Part shown: positions 7,494-35,524 of the stretch, one piece after another
Layout: each line of letters opens with the position of its first letter
Position numbering within the stretch: the stretch's first letter is position 1
IMG/VR virus record: IMGVR_UViG_3300031841_001859
Span: 1-61,389 of that record
Source: a virus
Lineage: Duplodnaviria > Caudoviricetes
Strand: one strand, 5' to 3'
Length of the DNA: 61,389 nt
Position numbers and translations under genes: made by a program
Notes under the pieces: generated by a model
Database searches by the model: none
The model's input: the letters and a program-made list of their open reading frames with translations, nothing else
Told to the model about the DNA's origin: nothing

Positions 7494-7494
7494 T

Positions 7495-8484: not shown

Positions 8485-8485
8485 A

Positions 8486-9652
8486 ATGGCAACAACTAAA
8501 GTAAGAGGAGAGTTAGTAGATTTAAATGAAGCTGCTTCAGAGAGTGGACTAAAGATTCCTAGTGGAACAGAGTTAAATAGACCAACTGCTGCAGCTGGAC
8601 AAATCAGAAATAACACAAATGAAACTTCAGATGGTTCTGCTTCTTGTGAAGAGTATTATAGCGGAACGTCTTGGCAAAAAATTAATAATGTTGTTGTACC
8701 TGTTTATTTTAAAGCTCTTACTTACACAGGAACTGGTTCAACTCAATCTATCACAGGATTAGGCTTTCAGCCTGATTTTGTTTGGATGAAAAATACAAGT
8801 AATGTAGCTAATAATGTATTAGTTGACAGCAATAGAGGTAGAGATGGGGTATTATATTCAAATAGCTCAGCGCAAGAAGCTCCGTCACCAGCTGGAACAG
8901 ATTTAGTAAGTTTTGATTCAGATGGATTTACTGTAGGAACTAATAATAATGGAAATGTAAACGTTAATGGAAATTCTTACATAGCTTTCTGTTGGCAAGG
9001 GAATGGAGGTAATAATACATCAAATACAAATGGAAGTATTACAAGTACAGTACAAGCAAATACAAATTTAGGTTTTAGTATTGTAACATGGACTGGAACA
9101 GGAAGCAATGCAACTGTTGGTCATGGGTTAAGTTCAGCGCCAGAGTTTATCATTGTTAAAAATTATAGTGGTAATTATAGTTGGACTACAGGTTCAAGTG
9201 TTTTAAATGATGTTCTTGCATATTCAGATTTTAATGCTAACCAGTGGTCTCAATCGGGGAGTCCCTGGAACTCAACACAGCCTACAAGTTCTGTATTTAG
9301 CTTAGGAACTTATGTTGGTACAAATGGTTCTGGACAAAACATGCTTGCTTATTGTTTTCATTCTGTTGCTGGTTATTCTAAAATTGGAACGTATACAGGA
9401 ACTGGAAGTAGTAATTCAATTACTGGACTTGGGTTTCAGCCAAGCTGGGTAATGATAAAATGTACTTCTGCTGGGCCGGAGGACTGGCCTATATTTACCT
9501 CAGCTTTATCAAACAATTACACTACAGCAAACACTGATGCTACAGCTCAATCATTTACTTTTTCTTTTGATAGTGATGGATTTACAGTGCCAGCATCAAG
9601 TGGTATGACAAATGGAAATGGACAAAATTATATATACATGGCTTTTAAATAA
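8486..9652 (+). CDS. Tail fibre/receptor-binding protein
   Basis: YTGTG...GLGFQPDFVWMK, FDSDGFT, VGHGL..APE and YIYMAF repeats. Confidence 0.75.
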   Translation: MATTKVRGELVDLNEAASESGLKIPSGTELNRPTAAAGQIRNNTNETSDGSASCEEYYSGTSWQKINNVVVPVYFKALTYTGTGSTQSITGLGFQPDFVWMKNTSNVANNVLVDSNRGRDGVLYSNSSAQEAPSPAGTDLVSFDSDGFTVGTNNNGNVNVNGNSYIAFCWQGNGGNNTSNTNGSITSTVQANTNLGFSIVTWTGTGSNATVGHGLSSAPEFIIVKNYSGNYSWTTGSSVLNDVLAYSDFNANQWSQSGSPWNSTQPTSSVFSLGTYVGTNGSGQNMLAYCFHSVAGYSKIGTYTGTGSSNSITGLGFQPSWVMIKCTSAGPEDWPIFTSALSNNYTTANTDATAQSFTFSFDSDGFTVPASSGMTNGNGQNYIYMAFK

Positions 9653-9657
9653 TAGAT

Positions 9658-12600
9658 ATGGCAACAACAAAAATTACATCACCGGATTTCTTTGACTTAG
9701 CAAGTTTAAACACTGCTTTACAGTTGCCTAGTGGAACAACTGCAGAGAGACCGACTAGTCCAAGCACAGGTGAGTGGAGATATAACACGACTACTAACTT
9801 AGTAGAGTTTTGGGATGGGGGCGAATGGAGAGATTTACAATCCGAAGATTTACCGCCAGTGCCAAGTGAGAATTTTAATACGGTATTGTATAACGGTACA
9901 AGTGCTACCCATGCTATTACAGGTGTAGGATTTCAACCTGATTTAGTTTGGATAAAAGATAGAAATAATGGTGAATCACATATATGGAACGATTCAACAA
10001 GAGGCGCAGGTAACGATTTATCATCAAACTCAATAAACGCTCAAGCAAATAGGCCAACTGGTTTTACTTCTTTTGATAGTGATGGATTTACTTTAGGTAC
10101 AGATGGGGGTGGTGTTGTTAATGATTCAACTAGAGGGCCTTATGTCGCTTGGTGTTGGAAAGCTAACGGAGGAACTACGAGTAGTAATACGGATGGAACG
10201 ATTACAAGTACAGTGCAAGCAAATACAAAGGCTGGGTTTTCTATTATAAATTATACTGGGAATTTAACAGCAGGGGCAACTGTTGGTCACGGACTTGGCT
10301 CTACTCCAGAATTAATAATATTTAAACCTTTAGTTGGCGCTGCAGGATGGAAAGTTTATAGTAACCAATTATCTGACCCAGCAAATAAAGTATTATCACT
10401 TCAAGATTCTCACGCTGAATTAACTATTAACGCTTTTAATGGAACGCTTCCAAATTCTTCAGTTATAACTTTAGCAGCTTACGGAGATACAAATAGAACC
10501 TCTTCAATTATAGCGTATGCTTTTAAATCAGTAGCAGGATATTCAAAAACAGGTTCATACACAGGGAATGGTTCAGATAATGGGCCAATTATAAACACAG
10601 GATTTGAGCCTGCGTTTGTTATAATTAAAAGGACTGACACTGCTGATAACTGGTCTATGACTGATAATAAAAGGTCAACATCTAATCCTAGAGATAAAGC
10701 ACTTTTTCCTAATTTAACTCAATCTGAATTAACATCTGGTTATTCAGTAAATTATTTATCTAATGGTTTTCAAATAGCTACATCAGGTGCAGGTGTTAAC
10801 GCATCAGGAGGTACATTTCTTTACATAGCCTTTGCTGCAGACCAATCTGCTGCGCCAGTATTAGCGGATAGTTTTGCAAATAAATTATATACAGGGACTG
10901 GTAGTTCTCAATCTATAACAGGATTAGGTTTTAGCCCTAATTATGTTTGGATGAAACAAAGGTCGTTTGTTGATAATCATTATAATATGGATTCACTGAG
11001 AGGAGCAGCATTTAGAATACATAGTAATTTAACTGCAGCACAAAATGGACCTGATACAAATAGATTTACCTCTTTCGACACAGATGGGTTTACTATAGGT
11101 AGTGACCCTTCTGTAAATCAAGCTGGTTCAGATTTTGTTACTTGGAACTGGAAGGCAAATCCAAGTCCTACAATTAACACAGATGGTTCATCACAATCGG
11201 TAGTTAGCGCCAATCAAGCAGCTGGGTTCAGTATTGTTCAAGGAACAGCATCAGGAGGTCTTAACACTGTCAATAGTTTTGGTCACGGACTTGGTGTAAA
11301 ACCTGATTTGATTATTATTAAATCAACATCATCTGTAGATAATTGGTATGTTTATAATTCTATATCAGGTGCAGGTAAATCTTTGTATCTTAACGACACG
11401 GCTGCAGAATTTTCAACAACAAATGTTTGGGCTAATACTGAACCAACAGCATCAGTTTTTTCTATTAAAGATGGGCAAACTGTGAGTGTAGGTGCTACAT
11501 TTATTACCTACTGTTTTGCTTCTATATCAGGATTTAGCAAGATTGGAAGTTATACTGGTAATGGGAGTTCATCTGGTCCAACTGTAACAACAGGGTTTCA
11601 GCCAAGCTGGATAATGATTAAAAGAACTGATGCAGGTGGCACAAATTGGAATATTATGGATAGTACAAGAGGTAATTCTGATTATCTTTTAGCTGCCAAT
11701 ACAGATGGAGCAGAAGTTACAAGTGAAACACCATTAAACACAACTTCAACAGGATTTGTAATTACAGAATCAAGCGCCTATATAAACGCATCAGGAGGAA
11801 CTTACATCTACATGGCCTTTAAAGAAAACCCAGTGCAATACGCTATACCATCTGGAGAAATGGCGTTTTTAGTAGCCGCTGGTGGAGGTGGTGGAGGTTT
11901 TAATGAAGGAGCTGGAGGTGGAGCTGGAGGATTAAGAACTTCGTACGGGCTTACTTCTGGAGGTGGTGCAAGCGCAGAAAGCAATTTAACCTTAGCATCC
12001 GGTACTTACACAATTACAGTAGGTGGAGGTGGTATAGCTGGTACTTATACACCTACTTGGGCGCCAGGTGGAGATGGTTCGGTTTCATCAATAACAGGTT
12101 TAGTATCTATTACTACTGTAGGTGGTGGTGGAGGAGGAACAGGTGTTTCTGCTCAAGTCCCAGACATACAGCCAGGAAGAGATGGTGGTTCTGGTGGTGG
12201 AGGTTCAAGAGGTCCAAATAAACCAGGTGGTAGCGGAACAGCTAATCAAGGATTCGCTGGTGGAGCATCAAATGTAAGTAACGGTGACAGTGCTGGTGGA
12301 GGTGGTGGAGCTACTCAAGCTGGGCAAGTGCCTCCAGGAGCTGGAGGGGCAGACGGAGGTAATGGACTTACATCTGCAATTACAGGAAGCAATAGTGGTT
12401 ATGCTGGTGGAGGTGGAGGTGGAAGTTATACTGGAGGTGGCCCTGTTGGATTAGGAAAACACGGAGGTGGAGCAGGAGTTACAACTGGAACTCCTAATGC
12501 AGGAGTTGTAAACACTGGTGGAGGAGCTGGTGGAGGTGGTGGTTCTGGACTTGATTCAGCAAGAATAGGTGGTGTAGGAGGTTCTGGTGTAGTAATACTA

Positions 12601-12714
12601 AGAATGAACACGTCTGATTACTCTGGAAGTACAACTGGTTCACCGACTGTAACGACAGTAGGAACTGAAACCGTATTAACATATACAGGTAGTGGAACAT
12701 ACGTACATTCGTAA
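9658..12714 (+). CDS. Long tail fibre: two GFQPD-type modules plus a Gly-rich C-terminal domain
   Basis: Same modules as 8486-9652 and 6483-7493. Confidence 0.75.
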   Translation: MATTKITSPDFFDLASLNTALQLPSGTTAERPTSPSTGEWRYNTTTNLVEFWDGGEWRDLQSEDLPPVPSENFNTVLYNGTSATHAITGVGFQPDLVWIKDRNNGESHIWNDSTRGAGNDLSSNSINAQANRPTGFTSFDSDGFTLGTDGGGVVNDSTRGPYVAWCWKANGGTTSSNTDGTITSTVQANTKAGFSIINYTGNLTAGATVGHGLGSTPELIIFKPLVGAAGWKVYSNQLSDPANKVLSLQDSHAELTINAFNGTLPNSSVITLAAYGDTNRTSSIIAYAFKSVAGYSKTGSYTGNGSDNGPIINTGFEPAFVIIKRTDTADNWSMTDNKRSTSNPRDKALFPNLTQSELTSGYSVNYLSNGFQIATSGAGVNASGGTFLYIAFAADQSAAPVLADSFANKLYTGTGSSQSITGLGFSPNYVWMKQRSFVDNHYNMDSLRGAAFRIHSNLTAAQNGPDTNRFTSFDTDGFTIGSDPSVNQAGSDFVTWNWKANPSPTINTDGSSQSVVSANQAAGFSIVQGTASGGLNTVNSFGHGLGVKPDLIIIKSTSSVDNWYVYNSISGAGKSLYLNDTAAEFSTTNVWANTEPTASVFSIKDGQTVSVGATFITYCFASISGFSKIGSYTGNGSSSGPTVTTGFQPSWIMIKRTDAGGTNWNIMDSTRGNSDYLLAANTDGAEVTSETPLNTTSTGFVITESSAYINASGGTYIYMAFKENPVQYAIPSGEMAFLVAAGGGGGGFNEGAGGGAGGLRTSYGLTSGGGASAESNLTLASGTYTITVGGGGIAGTYTPTWAPGGDGSVSSITGLVSITTVGGGGGGTGVSAQVPDIQPGRDGGSGGGGSRGPNKPGGSGTANQGFAGGASNVSNGDSAGGGGGATQAGQVPPGAGGADGGNGLTSAITGSNSGYAGGGGGGSYTGGGPVGLGKHGGGAGVTTGTPNAGVVNTGGGAGGGGGSGLDSARIGGVGGSGVVILRMNTSDYSGSTTGSPTVTTVGTETVLTYTGSGTYVHS

Positions 12715-25682: not shown

Positions 25683-28600
25683 ATGGCAAATCTTCAAAGA
25701 AATTTTATAGCGGGCCGTATGAATAAAAGCCTTGAAGAAAGGCTTTTACCAAATGGTGAATATACAAATGCTATTAACGTAAGACTAGGTTCAACTGAGC
25801 AATCAGAAATAGGTTCAGTAGAAAACTCTAAAGGAAATACGAAACTTACAGAATTAGCTTACACCAACGGGACTAAGCTTAGCAACTCCGCAAGATGTAT
25901 TGGTTCTTTTGAAGATAGTGCTAATGAAACAATTTATTGGTTTGTACACGACCCTGCTTTTACACAAGGTGTAACAGGAAAACTTGATTTAATAGTATCT
26001 TATAATGTAAGGACCGGAGGGATAACATATCACATTATTAGTATTGATAATGGTGGTGGTGTAAATACAACACTTAATTTTAATCCATCTTTTTTAATAA
26101 CTGGAGTTGATAAGATAGATAATCTTTTGTTTTTTACAGATAATGTAAACCCACCTAGAGTAATAAACATAGATAGAAACTATCAAAATCCAACAGCTAA
26201 CACTTCAGGAAACCAACAGGACCAATTTGATAGAAGAGAGATATTAGTAGTAAAACAACCTCCTTTACAAGCGCCAACATTTCAATTAATACAAGCTAAT
26301 AACGAGGATTCATATATGACCGACAACTTTATTTGTTTTGGTTATAGATACAAATATGCTAACGCTGAATATTCGGCAACCTCACAATTTAGTGAACCAG
26401 CTTTTGCGCCTAAAGCTTTTAATTTTAGTGCTCAAAGTTTTGCTAATGAGGGAATGGAAAACAAGTATAATGCCGCTATAGTAACTTACAACTCAGGAAG
26501 TGAATTAGTAAAAGGAATTGATATTTTATATAAAGAGGCTAATGATTCAACCATTAAGGTTATTGAAAGAATAAGTAAAGCAGAAGAAGGATTATCAGAC
26601 AACACTTTTTACACATTTACGTTTACTGAAAGTAAAATCTTTTCTGTTTTACCTGAAAGTGAAATATTAAGATTATATGATAATGTACCAACGTTAGCAA
26701 AAGCACAAACACTTATGGCTAATAGATTGGTTTATGGAAACTATGTTGAAGGGTTTGATTTGAAAGATACTTTCAATCAACCATTAACACTTAGTTATAC
26801 TACATCATTAAGTCAATCTCAAATTGGTGAAGAAACATTACCTGTTACAACAGCTCAATCAAGCTTTACAGCATTTGGTTTTTCAACCACTATAAATGAT
26901 AGTGCTTTTAGAATTAATTTTTCAGGATTTGAAAGCTCTTTAGTAATAGGAGCAACAATAGATTTTTCATTTACATTTGAACATGACTCGTGGAGCGGTT
27001 CGAGTTTGCCTGACCAAACAACAGGACCAACTACTGTACATTTTAGCTATACACTAATACAAGATTTTACAAGCAGTGCTACTCCAATTAATGATTTAAT
27101 AGCAACCGCAGATTTCCAAGCAAAATTTGGAACACTAACAACAGGTATACAAACTGTAGCAAACGCACAAGCAGGCTCAGGAACTACATTAACAGATAAT
27201 TTTAATTTTCTTTTACAAGGACAATTAGGAACAGTTGCTCCACAATACGATATAAACCAAACAGGAAGAACTAATTCAACACCTGCTTTACCGTCAGCCG
27301 GAGAAGGAATAGCAGCAAGTGTAATATTGCCAGCAACCTTACAATTACAAATATTAGCAGCTCAATATGAAGAAACAGGAGTAGGAACAAATACAATTGT
27401 TGAGTATTTTAAAATTACTAATGCTACAGCATCAATATCTGAAGTGCCAAATTCAGGAAGTTTACATAGTAACAGAGGATATGAGGTTGGTATAATTTAT
27501 ATGGATAGTTTTAACAGAGCTTCTACTGCACTTGTATCAACAAACAATACAGTAAACATACCTTGTTCAGCATCTACTACAAAAAATGAAATTCTTGTAA
27601 GTATACCTGTTACACAAAGAGCTCCTAGTTTTGCAACAAGATATAAGTTTTGTATAAAGGCAGACAGAGACACTTATGATACCATTTACTCAAGTATATT
27701 TTTAGAAGATGATAATACTAATAATGTATACTTTTTACTGGAAGGAGACAATATAGGGAAAGTAAAAGATGGTGATAGGTTAATAGTTAAAAGAGATGTT
27801 AGTGGACCTTTATCTACTTGTACAGAAGCTACGGTGCTTGAAGTTAAAACACAAAACAAAGATTTCATAACAGTTACCTTAAATGGAAATGCAGTTCAAG
27901 TACCTGAAGGAGTTTATATGAAAATGAATAGTATTTCTTTTGAAGCTAAAATGGATGAAGATGATATTGTAGATGAAAAAGTACCAGCAATAAAAGCTAA
28001 AGCGGCTGGTAATTATCCGGTTATTGCTTATCCTTTTTTCTTAAGAGATGCTAGTGGAGCATTTACTTCTAATTATACTTTACCGATTGGAACAAGGGTG
28101 GTTATGCAGATAGAACAAACTAGAGTTGGAACAGGAAATCAATGTGAGCCAAGAAGCAGTATTTTAGAGCAAACTATAATTTGTAGTGATACTTACGCCA
28201 ACATACAAGAGTTTTTTAATAATGAAAACCTTCAAACTATTATTGAACAAAATGCTGTAGTATCTCCAGCTGATATTAATAATGTATATATATCAACAGC
28301 TTCTCAATCAAGCGGACTTCCATCAGGAGCAAATTCAGGTTCAAATGGAAGAAGCTCTATAACAAATATATTTGGTTCAACAGCAACCAGTCCTACATCA
28401 ACAAATTATTACAGACTACACGAAGATACCAGTACATCTCCTAATAGTTATTACCTACTTGTGTCAGGTACGGAAGGGTGTGCGTCCAGAAGCTCAAGAG
28501 GAGATTCACAGGTAAGAGTAGATTTTACTATCTACAGAAGAGATTCAGTAGTGGTATTTGAGACAGAACCAAAACCTGCTCTACCAGATTTATGGTATGA

Positions 28601-31600
28601 GAGTTCTCAATCTTTTGAAATAGATGTTTTAGGTGACCATTTAGGAAATGTAACAAATCAAGATATAGCTGCAGGAGTAGCAGGTCTTGTAAGAACTGAT
28701 TTTTCTAACTGTTTTGCATTTGGAAATGGAGTAGAAAGTTATAAAATTTTAGATGCTTCTTATGGTGAACAATTTAATTTAGGAAACAGAACACTAACTA
28801 CAGGAAATACAACTTTTCAAAAAGCTCATAGATTTGCAGACGTAACTTATAGTGGAGTATTTAATGATGAAACTAATGTAAATAAATTAAATGAATTTAA
28901 TCTTGGTCTAGCTAATTTTAAACCACTGGAAGAAACATTTGGTGATGTAGAAATATTGTATGCAAGAAGAGATGATATTCTGGTGTTACAAGAAGATAAA
29001 ATATCCTACGTATTAGCAGGAAAAGATTTATTAAGTGACGCAAGTGGAGATGGACAACTTACATCAGTTCCTGAAGTTTTAGGAAAACAAATTGCTCGAA
29101 TAGAGAACTATGGTATAAGTAATCATCCAGAAAGTTTTGCGGCTTGGGGAGAAAGTAAATTTTTTACCGATGCAAAAAGAAGTGCTGTAATAAATTTAGT
29201 TGGAAGTTCCGCTGCAAACGAGCAGCTTCAAGTTATATCTGAAGCAGGTATGAGAAGTTGGTTTAGAGATTTATTTACTGCTTCGTTTACTACTCAAAAG
29301 CTAGGAGCTTATGACCCTTACATGAATGAGTATGTATTAACCTCTAATACAATATTAAAACCAGAGGTAGCTGTATGTACAGCTTGTGGTGTAAGTAGAA
29401 ACATAACAATTACAGCAGGAGAAACTTTTATTTACTGTGTAGATTTAGAAGAGCAATTAGGGACGGTAGTAGTTAGATATAATATTCCTATTGAAGGTTC
29501 TCAAAATATTATTACTGAGGCTACATCTCAAGATATAGTTACAGAAACAGGAGACAATATAACAACAGAAGGTGGAGTGGGTGTAGTTGGTTATACAGTT
29601 ACAGCTTTATATGATGGTGGAAGCGTAAGTAGTGGGTTAGTATATACAAGCGGACAAATTACTTTTAATAAAAACTCAACAACAGTTAATCAGGTAGTTA
29701 TTGAAGTAAGTTCTAATGCAACTGTAGATGATACTATTGAAATAACAGTAGAATGTCCTTCAGGAACACTTCTTAATTTATATAGTATTTGTGTAACAGA
29801 TGCAATTGATGCAGGTAAATTTATCCACAATGAAGCTAGTTGGACAGACGGAAGTTTATTCTCTGCTACTCAATCAAATCTTGTTCCATTTGGCTCAGGA
29901 ACTGGTGCGTTTGTTATATCACAATACAACTTTATTAATGGAAACCAAGGAGTTGGTTTAATACCGACTAACGGTTCAGTAATGACAATTGCTACAAACA
30001 AAATAAACTTTGATGATTTTCAGTTTAACGCTACAAATAATAACTATGGTTATTTAAGAACTAACACAACTTATGCTAACACAGAAACTGACGTAACAAC
30101 ATTACTAGGATTAGTAAACAATATACCAATTAATACTGCTGGAGCTCCAGGTTATTACAAAGGTTCTTTTACTGTTCCCTCAACAGGTAACAACTTATAT
30201 TTAGTATATGATTACAGAAATCCACCAGCACCAACACCAACCCCACCTGTCTATGATTATAAACAATATCAGCAGTGTAACGATGCAACTGTTTTAACTT
30301 TTGTTAGAGGTGCTTCGGGGTATAGTTTCCCAGGATTTATTAAGTTTGATGGAGAATGTTACGAAAATCCTCAAACCACATCATCAGTATCAAATACTGA
30401 TATTGCACCTTTACCAACGTATGTGGACTGTGCTACTTGTTTAGCAACAGTACCTACGCCTACACCTACGCCTGTAACTTACATTTACAGAGAGTATGAA
30501 GATTGTGAGGATAATACAACTAAACAAATATTTAGATTAGAGGATGGTATTGGGGTTACATTTCCAGGTTTTGTAAAATACAATAATATATGTTACAACA
30601 ACCCTGCAACTACTGGTTCGACCAGTATTGAAAATGTGCCAAGTTTACAGTATGCTAGTTGTAGTGAATGTTTAGGAACTATCGCACCAACACCAACACC
30701 AACACCTACACCGACTCCAACACCTACGCCGCCTACACCGACATATTATTATTGGGCAGTTCAAGAATGTAGCGGAACTAATGTGATTCAAATAAGAACT
30801 ACTGACCCTGATGTTGGAAGTACAAAAATATCAGTTGAATTTGGAGGAGTTTGTTATGAAGTTCAATCAGGAGGTACTGTAAATACAAATGACATATCTG
30901 CTGCTTTTACTGATTGTACTGCGTGTGCTGGTACACCACCAACACCTCCACCGCCTACACCGACACCTACACCGACTCCAACACCTACGCCGCCTACTCA
31001 ATTATGGTATAGATTAACGTCGTGTGGCAACCATGGAGATTGTTGGTTACTAGCATCTCAAGCACCTACTTTTGACCAAAGGTTTGTTGATAGTGCTAGT
31101 AATATAAATTACTTTTATAGATATGCGGGTGATGCAGGTCAAACATATAGCCAAGGTGATTGTTCTGTACAGGCAGTGGGTACGGAAACAGGATGTCCTC
31201 CTGCGCCTACGCCTCCTACGCCACCATCACCACCTCCAACTCCTCCAGCTACTACAGATGTGGAGATTAGAGAGTGTGGCACAACATCGCCAACTTATAA
31301 TGTTACTGTAAACTTCAGCACATCAACTACAGGAGTAGCGTTTAAAGGAACAGGAACTGGAGGTGGTTGTGGAACTACATTTGATGGTTCAAGATGTTGG
31401 GAAGTTATAACATTAGGTGTTTCTGTAGGAAATTGTAACATTACTACAACTCAAATAGGTACTTGTGGTAATTTAACAGATTGTGCTCCACCACCTACAC
31501 CGCCTACACCACCTACTCCTACCCCACCTACTCCTCCTGCAACAGTATACGCAAGATATGGAGATTGTGCTACTGGAGGTAATGATATTATAACTGAAGT

Positions 31601-32024
31601 AAGCGGACCAGGGGGAACAATATTCCCGAATGTATTATTAATATCTGGTATATGTTATGAGTATTTAGACTTAGGAGGAGTAACAGGACCGTTGTACAGT
31701 AATTATACTAGTTACACTGATTGTGCTACTTGTCAGTCGGCAGCACCTACGCCTACACCGCCATCACCACCGACTCCAACACCAAGCTCTTGTTTTGCAA
31801 TAAACAATATAACAAGAAACAATATTAGTGCTAACGATGCTTGTGCAGCAACAAGATTTAATACACATTATTTTGATAATGCCCAATTCTGTGATGCAAC
31901 TCTTTATTATGGTACAGATTCTACTTGTACTAGTTTATATGGATTTGCTACTTATGTGACTAACGGTTCGTATACAAGATATTGGACGGGTACTTCTTTC
32001 CAAAGTTGTATAGGTTGTCCATAA
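25683..32024 (+). CDS. Tail stabilisation (muzzle) protein with a C-terminal Pro-Thr/Cys-rich extension
   Basis: NF..GRMNK...ERLLP.GEY..A.N start; FGYRYKY, NRLVYGNY, GNGVES, YGIS..PESFA, GAYDPY..EY; PT linkers from 30222. Confidence 0.75.
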   Translation: MANLQRNFIAGRMNKSLEERLLPNGEYTNAINVRLGSTEQSEIGSVENSKGNTKLTELAYTNGTKLSNSARCIGSFEDSANETIYWFVHDPAFTQGVTGKLDLIVSYNVRTGGITYHIISIDNGGGVNTTLNFNPSFLITGVDKIDNLLFFTDNVNPPRVINIDRNYQNPTANTSGNQQDQFDRREILVVKQPPLQAPTFQLIQANNEDSYMTDNFICFGYRYKYANAEYSATSQFSEPAFAPKAFNFSAQSFANEGMENKYNAAIVTYNSGSELVKGIDILYKEANDSTIKVIERISKAEEGLSDNTFYTFTFTESKIFSVLPESEILRLYDNVPTLAKAQTLMANRLVYGNYVEGFDLKDTFNQPLTLSYTTSLSQSQIGEETLPVTTAQSSFTAFGFSTTINDSAFRINFSGFESSLVIGATIDFSFTFEHDSWSGSSLPDQTTGPTTVHFSYTLIQDFTSSATPINDLIATADFQAKFGTLTTGIQTVANAQAGSGTTLTDNFNFLLQGQLGTVAPQYDINQTGRTNSTPALPSAGEGIAASVILPATLQLQILAAQYEETGVGTNTIVEYFKITNATASISEVPNSGSLHSNRGYEVGIIYMDSFNRASTALVSTNNTVNIPCSASTTKNEILVSIPVTQRAPSFATRYKFCIKADRDTYDTIYSSIFLEDDNTNNVYFLLEGDNIGKVKDGDRLIVKRDVSGPLSTCTEATVLEVKTQNKDFITVTLNGNAVQVPEGVYMKMNSISFEAKMDEDDIVDEKVPAIKAKAAGNYPVIAYPFFLRDASGAFTSNYTLPIGTRVVMQIEQTRVGTGNQCEPRSSILEQTIICSDTYANIQEFFNNENLQTIIEQNAVVSPADINNVYISTASQSSGLPSGANSGSNGRSSITNIFGSTATSPTSTNYYRLHEDTSTSPNSYYLLVSGTEGCASRSSRGDSQVRVDFTIYRRDSVVVFETEPKPALPDLWYESSQSFEIDVLGDHLGNVTNQDIAAGVAGLVRTDFSNCFAFGNGVESYKILDASYGEQFNLGNRTLTTGNTTFQKAHRFADVTYSGVFNDETNVNKLNEFNLGLANFKPLEETFGDVEILYARRDDILVLQEDKISYVLAGKDLLSDASGDGQLTSVPEVLGKQIARIENYGISNHPESFAAWGESKFFTDAKRSAVINLVGSSAANEQLQVISEAGMRSWFRDLFTASFTTQKLGAYDPYMNEYVLTSNTILKPEVAVCTACGVSRNITITAGETFIYCVDLEEQLGTVVVRYNIPIEGSQNIITEATSQDIVTETGDNITTEGGVGVVGYTVTALYDGGSVSSGLVYTSGQITFNKNSTTVNQVVIEVSSNATVDDTIEITVECPSGTLLNLYSICVTDAIDAGKFIHNEASWTDGSLFSATQSNLVPFGSGTGAFVISQYNFINGNQGVGLIPTNGSVMTIATNKINFDDFQFNATNNNYGYLRTNTTYANTETDVTTLLGLVNNIPINTAGAPGYYKGSFTVPSTGNNLYLVYDYRNPPAPTPTPPVYDYKQYQQCNDATVLTFVRGASGYSFPGFIKFDGECYENPQTTSSVSNTDIAPLPTYVDCATCLATVPTPTPTPVTYIYREYEDCEDNTTKQIFRLEDGIGVTFPGFVKYNNICYNNPATTGSTSIENVPSLQYASCSECLGTIAPTPTPTPTPTPTPTPPTPTYYYWAVQECSGTNVIQIRTTDPDVGSTKISVEFGGVCYEVQSGGTVNTNDISAAFTDCTACAGTPPTPPPPTPTPTPTPTPTPPTQLWYRLTSCGNHGDCWLLASQAPTFDQRFVDSASNINYFYRYAGDAGQTYSQGDCSVQAVGTETGCPPAPTPPTPPSPPPTPPATTDVEIRECGTTSPTYNVTVNFSTSTTGVAFKGTGTGGGCGTTFDGSRCWEVITLGVSVGNCNITTTQIGTCGNLTDCAPPPTPPTPPTPTPPTPPATVYARYGDCATGGNDIITEVSGPGGTIFPNVLLISGICYEYLDLGGVTGPLYSNYTSYTDCATCQSAAPTPTPPSPPTPTPSSCFAINNITRNNISANDACAATRFNTHYFDNAQFCDATLYYGTDSTCTSLYGFATYVTNGSYTRYWTGTSFQSCIGCP
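30222..31786 (+). repeat. Seven Pro-Thr/Pro-Ser linkers alternating with Cys-rich modules
   Basis: PTPTPTPTPTPTPP, PTPPSPPPTPP etc.; exact 35-bp repeat at 30702-30736 and 30963-30997. Confidence 0.9.
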
Positions 32025-32059
32025 TATTTTATATCTTTATATAAATTAAATTAAATCTA

Positions 32060-33316
32060 ATGCACGAAATATCAAACTTTATCACACATGAAGAGTGTGA
32101 CGAACTCATAAAAATGATAGACGCAAACCACACCCGCTCATCTGTAGTGGTAGGTGGCACTGACCGTTCTGATATCACAGACCATAGAACATCAAGCACT
32201 TCAAATTTAGACCCTAATAATGTTATAATTAAAAGTGTTCATAAAAAAATAGCAGACTATTTAAATTTACCGATAAATAAAGGAGAATCTTTGCAAGGGC
32301 AGTTGTATGAACCGGGTCAATATTTTAAACCTCATCACGATTTTTTTAGTGGGCCTGCCTATGATATGCACTGTTTACAATCAGGAAACAGAACGCATAC
32401 TTTAATGATATATTTAAATGATGACTTTGAAGGTGGTGAAACTAACTTTCCTAAGCTATCAGAATCATTTAAAGCTGAAAAAGGAAAAGCGCTTTGGTGG
32501 AAAAATATGATGGATGGGGTTACTGTAGATGATATGCTTCATGAAGGACAACCAGTTGTGTCTGGTAAAAAATATATTGTTACATCTTGGTGGAGAGAAA
32601 ATGGATGGGATGGTGCTGGAGATGAACAAAAACATAAAGAGCTTACAGAAGAACCTGTAAGTGAAGTAGTGGAAGAGGAAAAAGTTTTAGAAAGCAAAGT
32701 GGTTAAGGTTAACAATAATGTTATACAATCAGACTCACCGCTTCCTAAATTAACACCCCTTGGTTTTGAATTAATAAAATGTCCAAGCGATATGTGGAAT
32801 TTAATTAAAGAGTGTTATGAGTTATTAAAATTAAAAGAAGTAGAAGAAAACTTTGACGGTAAAGACCATTATGTGCCAGGAGAAACTACAATGTTAAGTT
32901 TTGATAATTTACCTACAGTTAAAAATATACTACACAAACAATTAAAAGATGTGCACGAAAATTTTTGTGGCAGAAAACTTGACCCTAGTTTTGTTTACGG
33001 TATTAGGTCTTACAAAAAAGGTTCTAGTTTAACTGAACACACAGATAGAATCGAAACACATCACATATCCTCAATAATTATAGTAGATAAAGATTTAAGA
33101 TGTGGATGCCAAAATAAAAAATACGCAGATGACTGGCCTCTTGATATAAAAGGCCACGATGGTGAGTGGTATAAAGTTTATGCGCAGCCAGGAGATATGA
33201 TACTGTATGAATCGGCTGTGTGTGAGCACGCAAGGAAAGAACCGTTCGGCGGAAACTTTTTTAGAAACTTTTATATACATTACAAGTTAAATGATTTTAC
33301 ACTTCCTAGCTCCTGA
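32060..33316 (+). CDS. Prolyl 4-hydroxylase fused to a second 2OG-Fe(II) oxygenase domain
   Basis: NFITHEECD, RTSS, ESLQGQLYEPGQYFKPHHD, TLMIYLND..EGGETNFP, LHEGQPV.SGKKYIVTSW; second domain YGIRSY...EHTDR...WPL...PGDMILYES..EHAR. Confidence 0.85.
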   Translation: MHEISNFITHEECDELIKMIDANHTRSSVVVGGTDRSDITDHRTSSTSNLDPNNVIIKSVHKKIADYLNLPINKGESLQGQLYEPGQYFKPHHDFFSGPAYDMHCLQSGNRTHTLMIYLNDDFEGGETNFPKLSESFKAEKGKALWWKNMMDGVTVDDMLHEGQPVVSGKKYIVTSWWRENGWDGAGDEQKHKELTEEPVSEVVEEEKVLESKVVKVNNNVIQSDSPLPKLTPLGFELIKCPSDMWNLIKECYELLKLKEVEENFDGKDHYVPGETTMLSFDNLPTVKNILHKQLKDVHENFCGRKLDPSFVYGIRSYKKGSSLTEHTDRIETHHISSIIIVDKDLRCGCQNKKYADDWPLDIKGHDGEWYKVYAQPGDMILYESAVCEHARKEPFGGNFFRNFYIHYKLNDFTLPSS

Positions 33317-33911
33317 AGATAAATCCAAATGGTCTCAAAAGTGGCACTACTGTTTAGACTCCTGGAAGAAATCACATTGCTGTATAAAAGTGTGGAATGA
33401 TACTGAAATCGATGAGTTTATTAAATGCAACGACCCAGAATTTTTTAAAGTCTTGGATATGCTACATAAGATATTTAAGCTTGATTATGTTAGGAGTTTA
33501 ATATTAGAAAAGATAGGAGGCGCATACATAGATATGGATGTAGAATTAATATCTCCTTTTATAAACCAAATCGATAGAAATAAAATTTATATTATTGGAG
33601 CTTCATCAGCAGATGAGGTTGTTCAAAACAGCTTAATGATTTCTCCTCCGTCAGATTTTTGGGCACGGTTTCTGACCTACTCCCGAAAAAATATTATTGA
33701 AAATTTAGAAGCAGTACGTGCTTATCCAAATTATGAAGAAAAGTTAAGAGGTACAATTGTTAGAAAAACCGTTGGACCTATTGCTTTATCTGAGTTTATT
33801 GAACAAGACAAAGAAAATGTAGAAATATTACCAGCAAACTTATTTAATAATTCACAAGGTATTTGTTTCACCAAACACCATCAAACAGGTATATGGGGCT
33901 TTATTGATTAG
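33291..33911 (+). CDS. Glycosyltransferase, GT32/OCH1-like DxD family
   Basis: CLDSWKK...W.D, KLDYVRSLILEKIGGAYIDMD, NSLM.SPP, TVGP, HH.TG.W. Confidence 0.8.
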   Translation: MILHFLAPEDKSKWSQKWHYCLDSWKKSHCCIKVWNDTEIDEFIKCNDPEFFKVLDMLHKIFKLDYVRSLILEKIGGAYIDMDVELISPFINQIDRNKIYIIGASSADEVVQNSLMISPPSDFWARFLTYSRKNIIENLEAVRAYPNYEEKLRGTIVRKTVGPIALSEFIEQDKENVEILPANLFNNSQGICFTKHHQTGIWGFID

Positions 33912-33952
33912 CACCAATAAATTTTCGTAAATTTGTACTTTAATTATATATA

Positions 33953-35524
33953 ATGGCAAACTGTATATCGTATGACTTGATTTGTCCTATTGGAGCAACA
34001 GGAGGAGAATGTAGATGGTCTATTAGTTGTTGTGATGGAAGTTTTCAAAGAGTTATACTTCAAGAAGGAGAAATTTCTACCCCTTGTATAGATAAGGATT
34101 CAACATTTTATAACGGAGAACCTGTAGCACAAAACTCTATATCAGGTACTTTTACTCCAGTAGATGTTCCATGTACAAGTGCTTGTGGTACAGTTAATCC
34201 AGCGCCAAATCCAACTCCGCCGAGTCCTCCGACTCCCCCTACACCGCCGAGTCCTCCGACTCCTGCGCCAACGCCAGCCCCTGATTATTGTTTAGGAGCT
34301 GAGAATGAAGTTACAATTCAAAATATTAGCGGAAGTAATAAGTATGTGTTTGGTGGAAACTATGGTACATACGGAACTAATGTAGGAACATACGTATTGA
34401 AAAACGTTCCGGCAGCACATCCAATTGCTATACAAAATTATAATTTAACTGGTTCAATTACATATACAGGTACAAATGCGGTTGGGCCTAAAGTTGGTTT
34501 AGATGGGAATACATATACATATTATTGGGGAGATGTAACAATTACTGTTCTTGGTTTTTATGGAACTATAAGTTATGAGTGTTACTATCATGGATATATG
34601 GGTGGTCAGAATAATCTAATTTATAATTCAACTACTTGTAGCGTACCAAGTCCAACGCCACCTGCTCCGACTCCGCCTACGCCTCCTACACCTAGTACAG
34701 TTCCTCCTGTGCCATCACCGGTTACAACGGAATATACTTTAACGTATGCTGGCAGTGTAAAAGGATGGCCCTCATTTTATTCTTATATACCAGAATATAT
34801 GATGGGTATGAATAATTATTTGTATTCTTTTAATGGTGGTAATTTATATAAACACAATACAAATGAAGTTAGAAATAATTTTTATGGCCAACAGTATGAT
34901 TCTCAAATAACAAGTGTGTTTAATCAAAACCCGCTAGAGAATAAAATATTTAAAACTATAAACCTAGAATCAGATTCTGCATGGACAGTTAACTCAAAGA
35001 CAGATATACAAGATGAAGGATATGTTGACTACAGGTGGTTTGAAAAGAAAGAAGGTGCATACTTTGCATACCTTAGAAAAACAAATCAAATACCAGCGCC
35101 TGATAATGAATTTGCGCTAAGGTCTGCTAATGGTATTGGAAAAACTTCTGGATGGAATTTACAAAGCAATGTGCTTACTGTAAACTTTTCTGTAAACCCA
35201 CTGGTATCTATTGGCGATATAGTTAGTATAGGTGATTATCTTTATTTTTCTGAACCTCAATATACCACTGTAAAATTTGCAGGACAAATAACTAATATTG
35301 AGGTAGATTTAAGAAGTGGTATAAACAGATTGTTTGCTAATACAAACATAACAGGTGCACAAACGATAGGTGTTACAGACCCCTATATGTTATACATTAA
35401 AAATATTGAGGCAGAAGTAAACGGTATGTTAGGTCATCAATTAAACTTTACACTTACAAATCCAAGTACAACTTCAGTTGAACTCTTTGCTGTAGAGGCT
35501 GAAGTTATGAAAAGCTATCCGTAA
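33953..35524 (+). CDS. Tail protein: Cys-rich module, PT linker, cupredoxin-like module, PT linker, muzzle C-terminal-type domain
   Basis: PT runs at about 34197-34283 and 34644-34720; AHPIAI...CYYHGYMGG; TLTY..SVKGWPSFYSYIPE...KIFKTINLES...FEKKEG. Confidence 0.7.
   Translation: MANCISYDLICPIGATGGECRWSISCCDGSFQRVILQEGEISTPCIDKDSTFYNGEPVAQNSISGTFTPVDVPCTSACGTVNPAPNPTPPSPPTPPTPPSPPTPAPTPAPDYCLGAENEVTIQNISGSNKYVFGGNYGTYGTNVGTYVLKNVPAAHPIAIQNYNLTGSITYTGTNAVGPKVGLDGNTYTYYWGDVTITVLGFYGTISYECYYHGYMGGQNNLIYNSTTCSVPSPTPPAPTPPTPPTPSTVPPVPSPVTTEYTLTYAGSVKGWPSFYSYIPEYMMGMNNYLYSFNGGNLYKHNTNEVRNNFYGQQYDSQITSVFNQNPLENKIFKTINLESDSAWTVNSKTDIQDEGYVDYRWFEKKEGAYFAYLRKTNQIPAPDNEFALRSANGIGKTSGWNLQSNVLTVNFSVNPLVSIGDIVSIGDYLYFSEPQYTTVKFAGQITNIEVDLRSGINRLFANTNITGAQTIGVTDPYMLYIKNIEAEVNGMLGHQLNFTLTNPSTTSVELFAVEAEVMKSYP

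Follow-up and report, generated by a model that had tools for sequence, protein, structure and literature searches.

A candidate hydroxylation and O-glycosylation cassette within the split tail muzzle gene of a marine tailed phage

Why would a bacteriophage carry a prolyl 4-hydroxylase (P4H) and a glycosyltransferase between two genes rich in proline and threonine? The window, that is, the whole stretch of 61,389 nucleotides analysed here, is the complete 61.4-kb genome of a marine tailed phage, a podophage of Elemovirus/Cellulophaga-phage kin. The original prediction was that the enzyme pair hydroxylates and glycosylates the Pro-Thr (PT) linkers of the phage's own tail proteins. We asked how far the genes themselves, and their relatives, bear this out.

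A split muzzle gene with Pro-Thr appendages

The genes flanking the oxygenase and the transferase together make up a crAss-type tail muzzle gene that is split in two (its halves are called MuzN and MuzC here), and both bear, at the split, small Cys-rich modules linked by Pro/Thr. The locus is made up as follows.

25683-32024, + strand: ORF of 2113 aa (MuzN)
25683..30221, + strand: MuzN N-terminal core, aa 1-1512 of 2113; phrog_14478 virion structural protein, E 2.9e-210
30222..32024, + strand: MuzN C-terminal appendage, seven PT linkers alternating with seven Cys-rich modules
30222-30248, 30453-30473, 30684-30743, 30933-30998, 31197-31256, 31485-31544, 31737-31790, + strand: PT tracts of the 2113-aa protein ([PTSA]{7,} scan)
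32032-32039, upstream of the oxygenase gene: TATCTTTA, putative -7-like element
32038..32056, + strand: A/T-rich leader TATATAAATTAAATTAAAT, ending 3 nt before the oxygenase ATG
32060-33316, + strand: ORF of 418 aa (oxygenase)
32060..32620, + strand: oxygenase domain 1, prolyl 4-hydroxylase, aa 1-187; PF13640, E 2.6e-16
32744..33316, + strand: oxygenase domain 2, PhyH-like 2OG/Fe(II), aa 229-418; phrog_2954, E 3.2e-18
33291-33911, + strand: ORF of 206 aa, GT32-like GT-A glycosyltransferase, overlapping the 418-aa ORF by 26 nt; PF04488, E 1.7e-9
33953-35524, + strand: ORF of 523 aa (MuzC)
33953..34732, + strand: MuzC N-terminal appendage: 8-Cys module, linker 34211-34282, 121-aa module, linker 34646-34699
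34211-34282, 34646-34699, + strand: PT tracts of the 523-aa protein ([PTSA]{7,} scan)
34733..35524, + strand: muzzle protein C-terminal core; PF25729 crAss_MUZ_C, phrog_38031

The MuzN core shares homology with the first part of the Elemovirus muzzle ORF, which is single and unsplit, and also with a 1551-aa structural protein of MW202828, while MuzC matches PF25729 over residues 306-376 (E 8e-20, 71.5 bits where the cut-off is 27) and its core matches phrog_38031 at E 1.1e-88. The MuzN appendage modules are small (63-77 aa, with 4 or 6 Cys apiece), such that the 601-aa appendage holds 32 Cys compared to 14 in the 1512-aa core. Relatives that lack the enzymes also lack both appendages, their MuzC proteins being only 267-276 aa long.

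We defined a PT tract as [PTSA]{7,} with at least three P and at least two T/S, which gave nine tracts, seven in the 2113-aa protein and two in the 523-aa protein. When residues were shuffled 1000 times, the mean was 0.084 tracts for the former (maximum 2) and 0.043 for the latter (maximum 1). When all six frames of the window were scanned more strictly ([PTSA]{8,}, four or more P), 6 and 2 tracts were found in these genes, and the three remaining matches all lie in short frames antisense to a Gly-rich gene (9658-12714). PT runs are therefore confined to two real genes, which flank the enzyme pair, as had been claimed.

Of the leader's 19 bases, 17 agree with the sequence immediately upstream of the ATG at 20107 (the 3' 15 nt being identical), and a similar stretch lies just ahead of the ATG at 22816; allowing up to 3 mismatches, there are 7 matches compared to 0.38 expected. 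The shared leader stands; the 20107 gene, for which no Pfam match was found, is a putative scaffold gene. A sigma-70 scan revealed no excess of sites (30 versus 25.9 in shuffles). From position and shared leader alone we infer late expression of the enzyme pair; a function for the leader itself is putative.

The oxygenase and the glycosyltransferase

The 418-aa protein is a true P4H domain fused to a second, intact PhyH-like 2OG oxygenase domain, so that the earlier P4H call is confirmed for domain 1 while its picture of a single oxygenase is not. Among solved P4Hs (PDB), domain 1 is closest to that of Bacillus anthracis (E 1.5e-30), with PBCV-1 at E 2.5e-16. By fold (VIA) it aligns to Chlamydomonas P4H 2jij at Z 22.3 and to PBCV-1 5c5t at Z 20.6, and its top Foldseek match is 3gze, an algal P4H with (Ser-Pro)5. 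Indeed, H92-x-D94, H161, K171 and R43-T44-S45 are invariant across 27 homologues, in keeping with the HxD...H and RTS motifs originally noted. In domain 2, H390 and R402 never vary among 27 sequences, of which at least 90% also keep H327 and D329; tblastn matches the domain to cyanophage '2OG-Fe(II) oxygenase' genes, and its nearest folds (VIA) are HalB 7u6i (Z 14.5), 2rg4 (13.3), AviO1 (12.4) and EvdMO1 (12.2). Such a two-domain chain, with two DSBH domains and the prolyl hydroxylase first, recalls OGFOD1/Tpa1, and 4nhx and 4nhk align with it over residues 1-410 and 1-413, respectively (VIA Z 13.9 and 12.9); the high rmsd (18-20 A) shows, however, that the domains are not oriented alike. In Tpa1/OGFOD1 the C-terminal domain is not known to be catalytic, whereas the second phage domain keeps its HxD...H...R set.

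The overlapping gene encodes a GT32-like DxD glycosyltransferase, as predicted: PF04488 is matched at 38.7 bits (cut-off 23), and the DxD motif, D81-M-D83, is invariant in 20 homologues. The best fold match of its structure model (pLDDT 94.3) is Och1 (9n3s, E 1e-8), followed by protein-glycosylating toxin domains, with PBCV-1 A64R also among the matches (E 1.4e-4). Och1 acts on N-glycans and the matched toxin glycosyltransferases act on protein Thr/Tyr. The enzyme does not belong to a proven hydroxyproline (Hyp) transferase family, and Hyp transfer is thus a candidate activity.

Tracts and partner genes at related loci

To what extent does this arrangement hold elsewhere? Both oxygenase domains are present, fused or adjacent, in 82/82 related oxygenase loci. 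Where at least 300 nt of upstream sequence is available (71 loci), PT tracts lie upstream of the oxygenase in 68; where MuzC is in view (65 loci), they lie downstream in 63. The oxygenase adjoins PT-rich genes down to 44-50% MuzN identity, and two loci with a more distant gene order (L221 and L222) run from an unsplit muzzle to a PT-rich ORF and then to oxygenase and GT32.

What follows the oxygenase varies: GT32-like, HPAT-like (PF23452), PF11397 or O-FucT proteins, GDP-sugar enzymes, or nothing. In the 65 loci with the downstream muzzle gene in view, the island held a GT32-like gene (30 loci), u220 with an HPAT-like gene (9), an HPAT-like gene alone (6), radical SAM with PF11397 (5), GDP-mannose dehydratase with u220 and an HPAT-like gene (3), an O-FucT and carbamoyltransferase set (3), GMD with u273 and an HPAT-like gene (2), a GT32/GT60-like gene (2) or O-FucT with PF11397 and an epimerase (2); three loci had an oxygenase without a transferase. 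PF11397, the Skp1 Hyp-GlcNAc transferase family, is matched at E 2.8e-40 to 5.6e-75, and PF10250, PF16363, PF01370, PF16861 and PF04055 also occur. PF23452, the hydroxyproline O-arabinosyltransferase (HPAT) family, is matched by 4 of 12 members of a 277-aa partner family (best E 1.4e-7, 31.6 bits where the cut-off is 23.9), and in the three Atlas clusters nearest to that family it is found on 16%, 40% and 10% of members; the 277-aa family is a distant HPAT relative. The founding members of PF23452 and PF11397 glycosylate hydroxyproline. Judged by gene content, the slot behind the oxygenase behaves as a putative exchangeable glycosylation island across the phage family. Tract make-up follows island type: tracts beside GT32 are 58% Pro with 20 PP per 100 residues, those beside PF11397 are 48% Pro with 1.1 PP per 100 residues, and in those without P4H in view Thr (46%) exceeds Pro (40%).

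The absence test covered 48 loci spanning both muzzle cores. The 32 P4H loci have 5-13 tracts, the five PF11397-only loci have 2, 3, 5, 0 and 1, and the 11 no-enzyme loci have 0, 0, 0, 2, 0, 1, 1, 0, 0, 0 and 0; relatives without enzymes therefore have 0-2 tracts, and appendage modules are absent from them. On the MuzN-core tree (43 rows), however, the P4H state needs only two changes, so the co-occurrence of enzymes and tracts is not statistically independent: only 2 independent contrasts are available (sign test p 0.5). Co-occurrence, then, tracks across the loci as had been expected, but it is clade-structured and may go back to one or two ancestral events.

Starting from the transferases, the oxygenase lies directly upstream in 45/45 loci whose GT32-like protein reaches at least 53% identity, and in 42 of 45 loci found by the HPAT-like profile. 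The other three HPAT-like loci (34-36% identity) lack an adjacent P4H, and the one searchable record among them (299,853 nt, 68% complete) contains no P4H. Neither P4H nor PT tracts are in view at 32 of 77 GT32-profile loci (27-38% identity). Four oxygenase loci sit inside a large sugar-enzyme cluster; three of them (L073, L074, L078) have no PT-rich gene in view, and at the fourth (L069) a truncated 5' ORF bearing a short PTPAPTAP tract is all that is seen. Erwinia and Salmonella phage P4H-like genes (33-34% identity) lie among replication genes, beside asparagine synthase, and hence a phage P4H need not serve virion proteins.

A candidate pathway and its closest parallels

From sequence comparison, it seems fairly probable that the cassette in the split muzzle gene targets the PT linkers of its appendages, hydroxylating them and adding O-linked sugars. 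The P4H domain would act in the cytoplasm of the host while late genes are expressed, hydroxylating prolines of X-Pro repeats in the linkers, whose contexts (TP, PP, AP, SP) are the polyproline-II kind of substrate taken by algal and plant P4Hs. The transferase would then add a sugar from a host nucleotide sugar to hydroxyproline and/or neighbouring Thr/Ser, and the second oxygenase domain is a candidate for further oxidation, of another residue or of the sugar. The outcome would be stiff, protease-resistant, glycan-coated stalks showing small modules at the tail tip, presumably for adsorption. That they mimic algal glycans or target glycan-uptake receptors, as originally suggested, is conjecture. 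Each pair of muzzle halves has nine linkers, so that a virion would carry 54 if the muzzle is hexameric like that of PhicrAss001. This core of the original prediction gains from the synteny, the Hyp-family partners and the tract-poor enzyme-less relatives, and is weakened by the small number of tree changes and by the nearest folds of the GT32-like enzyme.

The two activities might instead be uncoupled: hydroxyproline would only stiffen the polyproline-II linkers, and the GT32-like enzyme would glycosylate Thr/Ser, or extend a host-added sugar. The Thr-rich tracts of PF11397 relatives without P4H in view, the three oxygenases without a transferase and the toxin folds that follow Och1 point this way; HPAT-like and PF11397 partners come from families founded on Hyp transferases, however, the 26-nt overlap suggests coupled production of oxygenase and GT, and the oxygenase precedes every GT32-like gene at the higher identities. 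We consider such uncoupling unlikely. It is improbable that the enzymes are directed at the host, P4H at EF-Tu or a ribosomal protein and GT at envelope glycans, with the PT neighbourhood incidental to a muzzle split that accepts insertions in general. The split site indeed holds a 183-aa 'putative glycosidase' in MW202828 and 212-552-aa unknowns in other relatives, the title of PDB entry 5v7y ties the closest P4H, that of B. anthracis, to EF-Tu modification, and P4H-like genes occur among early genes in other phages. Yet the oxygenase stays beside PT-rich genes in distant relatives, including the L221/L222 order, PT appendages are missing where the enzymes are, the partners belong to protein O-glycosyltransferase families, and the leader of the oxygenase gene recurs at two genes in the head-gene block.

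We give still less credence to the enzymes acting on a small molecule or free sugar beside unmodified flexible linkers. Enzymes secreted by bacteria commonly have PT linkers as unmodified spacers, domain 2 has small-molecule or sugar-tailoring enzymes (HalB, AviO1, EvdMO1, EctD) as nearest folds, and PHROGs classes its cyanophage homologues as auxiliary metabolic genes; domain 1, however, is a peptidyl-prolyl hydroxylase by sequence and fold, and the cassette keeps its place among virion genes, its presence or absence tracking the PT appendages. DNA hypermodification, with a base oxidised and then glycosylated as in TET/JBP-type phage systems, which also pair a 2OG oxygenase with a glycosyltransferase, is scarcely credible, as the best 50 VIA rows contain no TET/JBP structure and place AlkB/FTO nucleic-acid oxygenases at only Z 10.9-13.9, below all P4Hs (Z 18-22), the 20 other ORFs scanned include no hydroxymethylase-type or nucleotide-metabolism family, and the enzyme genes sit inside tail genes.

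The proposed modification of the muzzle linkers has its closest parallel in the plant and green-algal extensin/arabinogalactan-protein pathway, which uses a P4H of the same structural family (Chlamydomonas P4H-1) on TP/SP/AP/PP repeats, and whose HPAT has a distant homologue directly behind the P4H in the phage's relatives. That pathway is in the ER/Golgi, whereas the phage version would run in the bacterial cytoplasm with enzymes free of membrane anchors, a P4H fused to a second oxygenase, a GT32-like transferase rather than an HPAT in the window itself, and virion tail proteins as targets. In the Skp1 system PhyA is followed by Gnt1 (PF11397) and further transferases; likewise, PF11397 proteins adjoin the phage oxygenase in relatives, with O-FucT-type and further transferases in some islands, and Toxoplasma Glt1 is a GT32. 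Skp1 has one defined Hyp, whereas the phage linkers have many repeats, and the phage P4H domain is nearer to collagen/algal-type P4Hs (Z 19.4-22.3) than to the PHD type (Dictyostelium PhyA 6t8m, Z 15.7). As summarised in a preprint, in Dictyostelium and Toxoplasma a cytoplasmic O2-/2OG-dependent P4H makes the glycan attachment site on Skp1 (bioRxiv 10.1101/764241).

Among viruses, chlorovirus PBCV-1 encodes a P4H of the same family (vCPH, 5c5t) and, for capsid glycosylation, a GT-A transferase acting on a virion protein (A64R, 2p72), although its host is a eukaryotic alga and it is not known to group its P4H and its glycosylation machinery with a substrate gene in a single cluster. In the present case such a cluster belongs to a tailed bacteriophage. 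Mimivirus L230, as outlined in accounts of this lysyl hydroxylase/glycosyltransferase, hydroxylates and then glycosylates the virus's own repeat-rich structural proteins, and its hydroxylase domain (6ax6) aligns to phage domain 1 at Z 12.9 (VIA). However, L230 targets lysine in Gly-X-Y collagen repeats rather than proline in PT linkers, and Mimivirus is a giant virus infecting amoebae; the phage itself showed no gene for a collagen-like Gly-X-Y protein, and its Gly-rich 1018-aa protein lacks a triplet repeat. Mycobacteriophages are tailed phages described in outline as glycosylating their own virion proteins with their own transferases, and in one study two putative glycosyltransferases are summarised as suggesting capsid glycosylation (PMC11256854). 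Their targets are capsid and tail tube, not the muzzle, and their hosts are actinobacteria. We know of no hydroxylase involved in their virion glycosylation.

To conclude, we found no description in the literature of such a hydroxylase and glycosyltransferase tail cassette in tailed phages, in agreement with the original remark that no description of this enzyme-plus-substrate arrangement there was known. New here are the muzzle split, the fused oxygenase, the variable partner genes in 82 loci and the tract-poor enzyme-less relatives. Because relatives swap in enzyme families known to glycosylate hydroxyproline, this phage probably decorates the tip of its own tail in much the way that plants make the glycoproteins of their cell walls.

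PT-rich linkers at a split muzzle gene

Four ORFs on the + strand fill 25683-35524, with the 206-aa ORF overlapping the 418-aa ORF by 26 nt:

25683-32024, + strand: 2113-aa protein carrying the larger muzzle core (MuzN)
32060-33316, + strand: 418-aa oxygenase
33291-33911, + strand: 206-aa GT32-like glycosyltransferase
33953-35524, + strand: 523-aa protein carrying the muzzle C-terminal domain (MuzC)

Using a fixed rule for PT tracts (at least seven consecutive P, T, S or A residues, of which at least three are P and at least two T or S), we found seven tracts in MuzN, all within its last 600 residues, and two in MuzC, both within its first 250 residues, against means of 0.08 and 0.04 tracts, respectively, in residue shuffles of the two proteins. 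Such runs had been described as limited to the two genes flanking the enzymes, and in a six-frame scan the only matches elsewhere indeed fell in frames antisense to a Gly-rich gene. Together the nine tracts comprise 158 residues (P 90, T 48, A 11, S 9); the residue preceding Pro within them is T in 42 cases, P in 30, A in 8 and S in 5, and the underlying DNA consists of short tandem repeats of 6-27 nt. The modules that lie between the tracts of MuzN (30249-32021) are 63-77 aa long with 4 or 6 Cys each, often with C-x2-C at the end, and the 601-aa MuzN tail contains 32 Cys versus 14 in the 1512-aa core. The first module of MuzC (region 33953-34645) has 8 Cys in 86 aa. A Pfam scan of the whole muzzle proteins returned no family for these Cys-rich modules.

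The 61,389-base record is that of a complete virus with direct terminal repeats, and its genes run in the order terminase, portal, head genes, a 306-aa protein and a very large structural protein. The 306-aa protein is 58% identical to its counterpart in the 60-kb podophage MW202828, 39% to those of Flavobacterium Elemovirus phages and 26-27% to those of Cellulophaga phages. Gene order and protein similarity tie this phage to MW202828, to Elemovirus and, more distantly, to the Cellulophaga phages, and from this kinship the host is probably a marine member of the Flavobacteriia. At the nucleotide level, a search of GenBank phages gave a single weak match, MW202828, with 8% query coverage.

The muzzle C-terminal domain of crassviruses is present in MuzC (crAss_MUZ_C, PF25729; residues 306-376, 71.5 bits against a cut-off of 27). 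MuzN corresponds to phrog_14478 (E 2.9e-210), and its identity as a muzzle protein comes also from the gene order common to Elemovirus and MW202828. A single 1493-aa ORF of Elemovirus matches the cores of both MuzN and MuzC, and in MW202828 there are two muzzle genes (1551 and 267 aa) with a gene for a 183-aa 'putative glycosidase' between them. Therefore, each PT-bearing gene of the window is one half of a split muzzle gene; judged from these comparisons, the modules joined by PT linkers were added at the split, with the enzyme genes seated within it. The split is a hot spot with variable cargo, namely the 183-aa protein in MW202828 and uncharacterised proteins of 212-552 aa in relatives that lack the enzymes. 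The crassvirus muzzle has N-terminal ring-joining and beta-propeller domains and forms a hexamer at the tail tip (PMC10172136). If the muzzle is hexameric here as well, each virion would display 54 linkers. The tracts reach extremes in some relatives: one 1052-aa ORF (L094, 10236-13391) has 23 of them, and the MuzN tails of L076 and L077 contain single (TP)n runs of more than 50 residues, which points to rapid repeat expansion.

The cassette sits within the + strand block of virion genes. Its 19-nt leader, said to be the same as that of the scaffold gene, does recur before the ATG at 20107, that of the gene between the portal and the major head gene, the match being 17 of 19 positions rather than complete. 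A leader-like stretch also precedes the ATG at 22816, and there are seven matches against 0.38 expected. Directly upstream of the oxygenase, TATCTTTA at 32032-32039 is one base off the Bacteroidota -7 consensus. A scan for sigma-70 promoters and terminators gave no excess over shuffles. From position and leader, it is reasonable to expect that the cassette is expressed late and strongly.

Several other features of the genome deserve mention. A GroEL-type chaperonin gene (PF00118) is split by the record ends, with its N-terminal part at 60443-61387 and its C-terminal part at 3-737, and the phage therefore has its own Cpn60; an Elemovirus relative has an annotated GroES co-chaperonin. Among the replication genes, a class-II glutamine amidotransferase-like region is fused to a gamma-glutamyl cyclotransferase-like (AIG2/GGACT) domain (55308-56417, - strand). 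An FkbM-family methyltransferase (1020-1793; PF05050, E 4.8e-8) lies 30 kb away from the cassette and might be a candidate for glycan methylation; in one relative (L105) the same family occurs within the glycosylation island, with PF11397 on one side and a tandem GT32 gene on the other. Probable fibre-like genes form a run over 6483-12714:

6483-7493: Gly_rich_2
8486-9652: DUF7483 (E 1.1e-84)
9658-12714: 1018-aa protein, its last 300 residues Gly-rich without a collagen triplet pattern

We considered the last of these as a collagen-like substrate and rejected it, as it has no run of Gly-X-Y repeats and the Pro-rich matches there are antisense frames.

A fused oxygenase and a small glycosyltransferase

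The 418-aa protein had been read as a prolyl 4-hydroxylase (P4H), and for its first domain (residues 1-187) sequence, fold and iron triad all agree with this. The domain matches characterised P4Hs of Bacillus anthracis (E 1.5e-30), Chlamydomonas (P4H-1, 2.4e-17), PBCV-1 (2.5e-16) and human (C-P4H alpha-2, 1.1e-15). In the AlphaFold model of the oxygenase (pLDDT 86.1), structure alignment with VIA matched it to 2jij, a Chlamydomonas P4H (Z 22.3), 5c5t from PBCV-1 (20.6), 5iax (19.7) and 7zsc (19.7), and the top Foldseek match of the oxygenase was 3gze (E 1.9e-15), an algal P4H bound to a (Ser-Pro)5 peptide. P4Hs use an HxD...H iron triad together with a Lys ten residues past the distal His for 2-oxoglutarate; here none of H92, D94, H161, K171 and the RTS motif varies among 27 homologues of 52-94% identity. 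On sequence and predicted structure, domain 1 thus belongs to the collagen/algal-type P4Hs (PF13640).

The view of the protein as a single oxygenase did not hold, as it carries a second intact double-stranded beta-helix domain, PhyH-like, from residue 229 to about 416-418. This domain matches cyanophage genes annotated '2OG-Fe(II) oxygenase' (in some records, ferrochelatase), and an Atlas search with it returned viral and bacterial clusters without a name, 185-217 aa in length. A Pfam scan gave no match, and a search of PDB sequences only a chance match (E 0.78). Its nearest folds by VIA (residues 221-418; Z 11.2-14.5) are HalB (14.5), the uncharacterised 2rg4 (13.3), AviO1 (12.4) and EvdMO1 (12.2), and also include the CurA halogenase and EctD; AviO1 and EvdMO1 are sugar-tailoring enzymes. 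The beta-helix is accompanied by an HxD...H triad and the Arg for 2-oxoglutarate, with H390 and R402 invariant and H327 and D329 present in at least 90% of 27 sequences. In every one of the 82 loci with a P4H domain, the second domain is present too. The fused protein has 565 matching clusters at 90% identity, is abundant in marine metagenomes as a family, and is labelled 'prolyl 4-hydroxylase' by JGI pipelines.

The assignment of the 206-aa protein as a GT32-like DxD glycosyltransferase was borne out: it matches PF04488 (38.7 bits against a cut-off of 23, E 1.7e-9), PF04488 is precomputed on 27 of its 28 homologues, and D81 and D83 of the DMD motif are invariant. Its model (pLDDT 94.3) adopts a GT-A fold whose best match is the GT32 mannosyltransferase Och1 (9n3s; E 1e-8, TM 0.67), after which come the protein-glycosylating toxin domains YeGT, SetA and PaToxG; a capsid glycosyltransferase of PBCV-1 is also present among the neighbours. 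The protein is therefore, on these predictions, a minimal cytoplasmic GT-A enzyme. Its fold neighbours include enzymes with glycan acceptors (Och1) and with protein acceptors (YeGT, SetA, PaToxG).

Island genes and PT tracts among relatives

Our scan of viral contigs found the oxygenase in 78 loci; identity was 50-94% in 77 and 28% in the remaining one (L079). A second scan, with the conserved 306-aa neighbour gene, added 80 loci kept out of roughly 566 relatives and includes relatives without the oxygenase. With the window, 82 loci carry the oxygenase. PT tracts lie upstream of it in 68 of the 71 loci with at least 300 nt of upstream sequence, the exceptions being L073, L074 and L078, which have another gene context, and downstream of it in 63 of the 65 loci with the muzzle C core in view; the two exceptions there (L119, L127) have tracts upstream only. 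A P4H gene encoded beside genes for predicted X-Pro repeat substrates is thus found in the window and conserved in its relatives. What varies is the island, which runs from the oxygenase to the muzzle C gene.

Genes of the island, with the number of loci out of 65
GT32-like: 30
220-aa and 277-aa (HPAT-like) proteins: 9
277-aa (HPAT-like) protein alone: 6
radical SAM and PF11397: 5
no gene: 3
GDP-mannose dehydratase (GMD) with 220-aa and 277-aa proteins: 3
O-FucT, carbamoyltransferase and two uncharacterised proteins: 3
GMD with 273-aa and 277-aa proteins: 2
380-aa GT32/GT60-like protein: 2
O-FucT, PF11397 and epimerase: 2

Transferases of families linked to hydroxyproline (Hyp) occupy this position in relatives. 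PF11397 was detected with E 2.8e-40 (L057), 4.9e-26 (L061) and 5.5e-35 (L065); to this family belongs the GlcNAc transferase that acts on hydroxyproline in Skp1, although its printed Pfam description is just 'Glycosyltransferase (GlcNAc)'. The 277-aa family matches PF23452 in 4 of 12 members, once above the cut-off (L036, 31.6 bits against 23.9, E 1.4e-7) and three times below it (E 2e-4 to 6e-4), and the other 8 gave no match at E up to 10. PF23452 is found on 16%, 40% and 10% of the members of the three Atlas clusters nearest to the family. By these profile matches the 277-aa proteins are distantly related to the plant hydroxyproline O-arabinosyltransferases (HPATs). Searched against PDB sequences, its profile gave nothing usable (best E 1.9), and hhalign against the GT32 alignment gave a probability of 0.14. 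In Pfam, the 220-aa partner matched only PF05637, under the cut-off (E 0.012), and the 292-aa and 273-aa island proteins had no match.

Searches that started from the transferases agree. With the HPAT-like profile, 42 of 45 loci had the oxygenase directly upstream, and it took the same place in each of the 45 loci where the GT32-like protein shared at least 53% identity with that of the window. In a more distant lineage (L221, L222) an unsplit muzzle gene is followed by a PT-rich ORF, the oxygenase and GT32. The oxygenase of L221 is intact (385 aa), and that of L222 (4876-5944) has a broken frame, in 119-aa and 275-aa pieces, possibly a frameshift, an assembly error or a decaying gene.

The proposal that enzymes and tracts occur together was examined in 48 loci spanning both muzzle cores. 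Those that carry the oxygenase, 32 in all, contain 5-13 PT tracts. Five loci have only a 403-408-aa PF11397 protein (four identified by Pfam scan, E 1.8e-70 to 7.8e-76, and L106 by tblastn only), with 2, 3, 5, 0 and 1 tracts. The 11 with neither enzyme have 0, 0, 0, 2, 0, 1, 1, 0, 0, 0 and 0 tracts and no appendages. The predicted pattern therefore stands as a pattern, PT-rich with the oxygenase and 0-2 tracts without either enzyme, but not as an independently replicated one: on a FastTree phylogeny of the muzzle core (43 rows, with 5 rows of fewer than 1200 aligned residues left out), the oxygenase state changes twice, giving two independent contrasts, both in the expected direction (sign test, p 0.5). 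With so few changes on the tree, the association is clean but clade-structured, and is compatible with the hypothesis without proving it. Tract make-up also follows island type, a softer signal seen in chosen loci and with kinship ignored: tracts are 58% Pro with 20 PP per 100 residues beside GT32, 52% Pro with 7 PP beside the HPAT-like protein, 48% Pro with 1 PP beside PF11397 plus P4H, and richer in Thr (46%) than in Pro (40%) where PF11397 occurs with no P4H in view.

Some observations weigh against a dedicated system of this kind. The transferase of the window is outside the families with proven Hyp acceptors: tblastn across the stretch that joins the two muzzle cores, with markers for PF11397, the HPAT-like family and O-FucT, and Pfam on 30 other ORFs of the window, detected neither HPAT (PF23452) nor Gnt1 (PF11397), and PF04488 was the only cassette transferase found. 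More distant transferase genes occur with no P4H or PT tracts in view, in 32 of 77 loci for GT32-like genes (27-38% identity) and in 3 of 45 for HPAT-like genes (34-36% identity); a P4H search of one record with a distant HPAT-like gene (L197, 300 kb, 68% complete) gave no match. Four oxygenases (L069, L073, L074, L078) belong to another phage context, a cluster of about 12 sugar-enzyme genes with a 1205-aa O-FucT/PF11397 fusion, a carbamoyltransferase, a sulfotransferase-like protein, a 182-aa PhyH-like protein and a GIY-YIG endonuclease; in L069 the sole tract is short and lies in a truncated 5' ORF, and the other three have no PT-rich gene in view. Single-domain P4H-like oxygenases of 33-34% identity are encoded by Erwinia phage Y3 (L161, 5923-6561) and Salmonella phage Sen-NF (L162, 5923-6570), among replication genes and directly after an 'asparagine synthase' gene, a pair conserved in these two unrelated phages. 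Finally, a PDB title connects the closest bacterial P4H with EF-Tu.

A candidate hydroxyproline glycosylation system

We propose that the P4H domain would hydroxylate linker prolines in the cytoplasm, upon which the GT32-like enzyme would place a sugar on Hyp and/or Thr/Ser. The second oxygenase domain would be responsible for a putative further oxidation, and the linkers, once modified, would serve as rigid spacers, coated in glycan and resistant to protease, between the Cys-rich modules of the tail tip. Some loci have the oxygenase and no island transferase, which suggests that hydroxylation has value by itself.

Hyp-linked glycans are regarded as characteristic of plants, algae and a few protists, Hyp made by enzymes is rare in bacteria, and HPAT and PF11397 have so far been tied to eukaryotic Hyp glycosylation. 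To our knowledge, Hyp glycosylation has not been described in bacteria or their viruses. Our wider reading is tentative, and we hold it with a confidence somewhat short of even: marine Flavobacteriia podophages may run a complete eukaryote-like Hyp O-glycosylation in the bacterial cytoplasm, with P4H followed by HPAT-like, Gnt1-like or GT32-like transferases and, in some islands, GDP-sugar synthesis, carbamoylation, radical-SAM chemistry and methylation, turning PT linkers into extensin- or mucin-like muzzle stalks. The slot behind the fused oxygenase would then be a rapidly exchanged cassette for glycan diversity, one that tunes adsorption or shields the tail tip, and these phages a large prokaryotic-virus reservoir of HPAT and PF11397.

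Systems of this general kind are known, both Hyp glycosylation of proteins rich in repeats and self-glycosylation by viruses, and the gene name is not new, as the JGI label attests; what appears to be new is the arrangement of enzyme, substrate and island. In line with the original prediction that this pairing of enzyme and substrate is undescribed in tailed phages, the literature searched contained no description of it, of a P4H-based modification system for tailed-phage virion proteins, or of a phage P4H linked to their Hyp glycosylation.

Confirmation would make this the first system in a tailed phage to hydroxylate and glycosylate its own virion, and one in which the substrate is at hand, the set of enzymes is compact and nature supplies variants with a swapped transferase. 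It would also be a source of soluble cytoplasmic pairs of P4H and Hyp transferase for glyco-engineering in bacteria. For the phages themselves, the system, if true, would offer a fresh means of studying how Bacteroidota podophages display their receptor-binding modules, and a test case for tail tips that diversify through glycans rather than through protein sequence.
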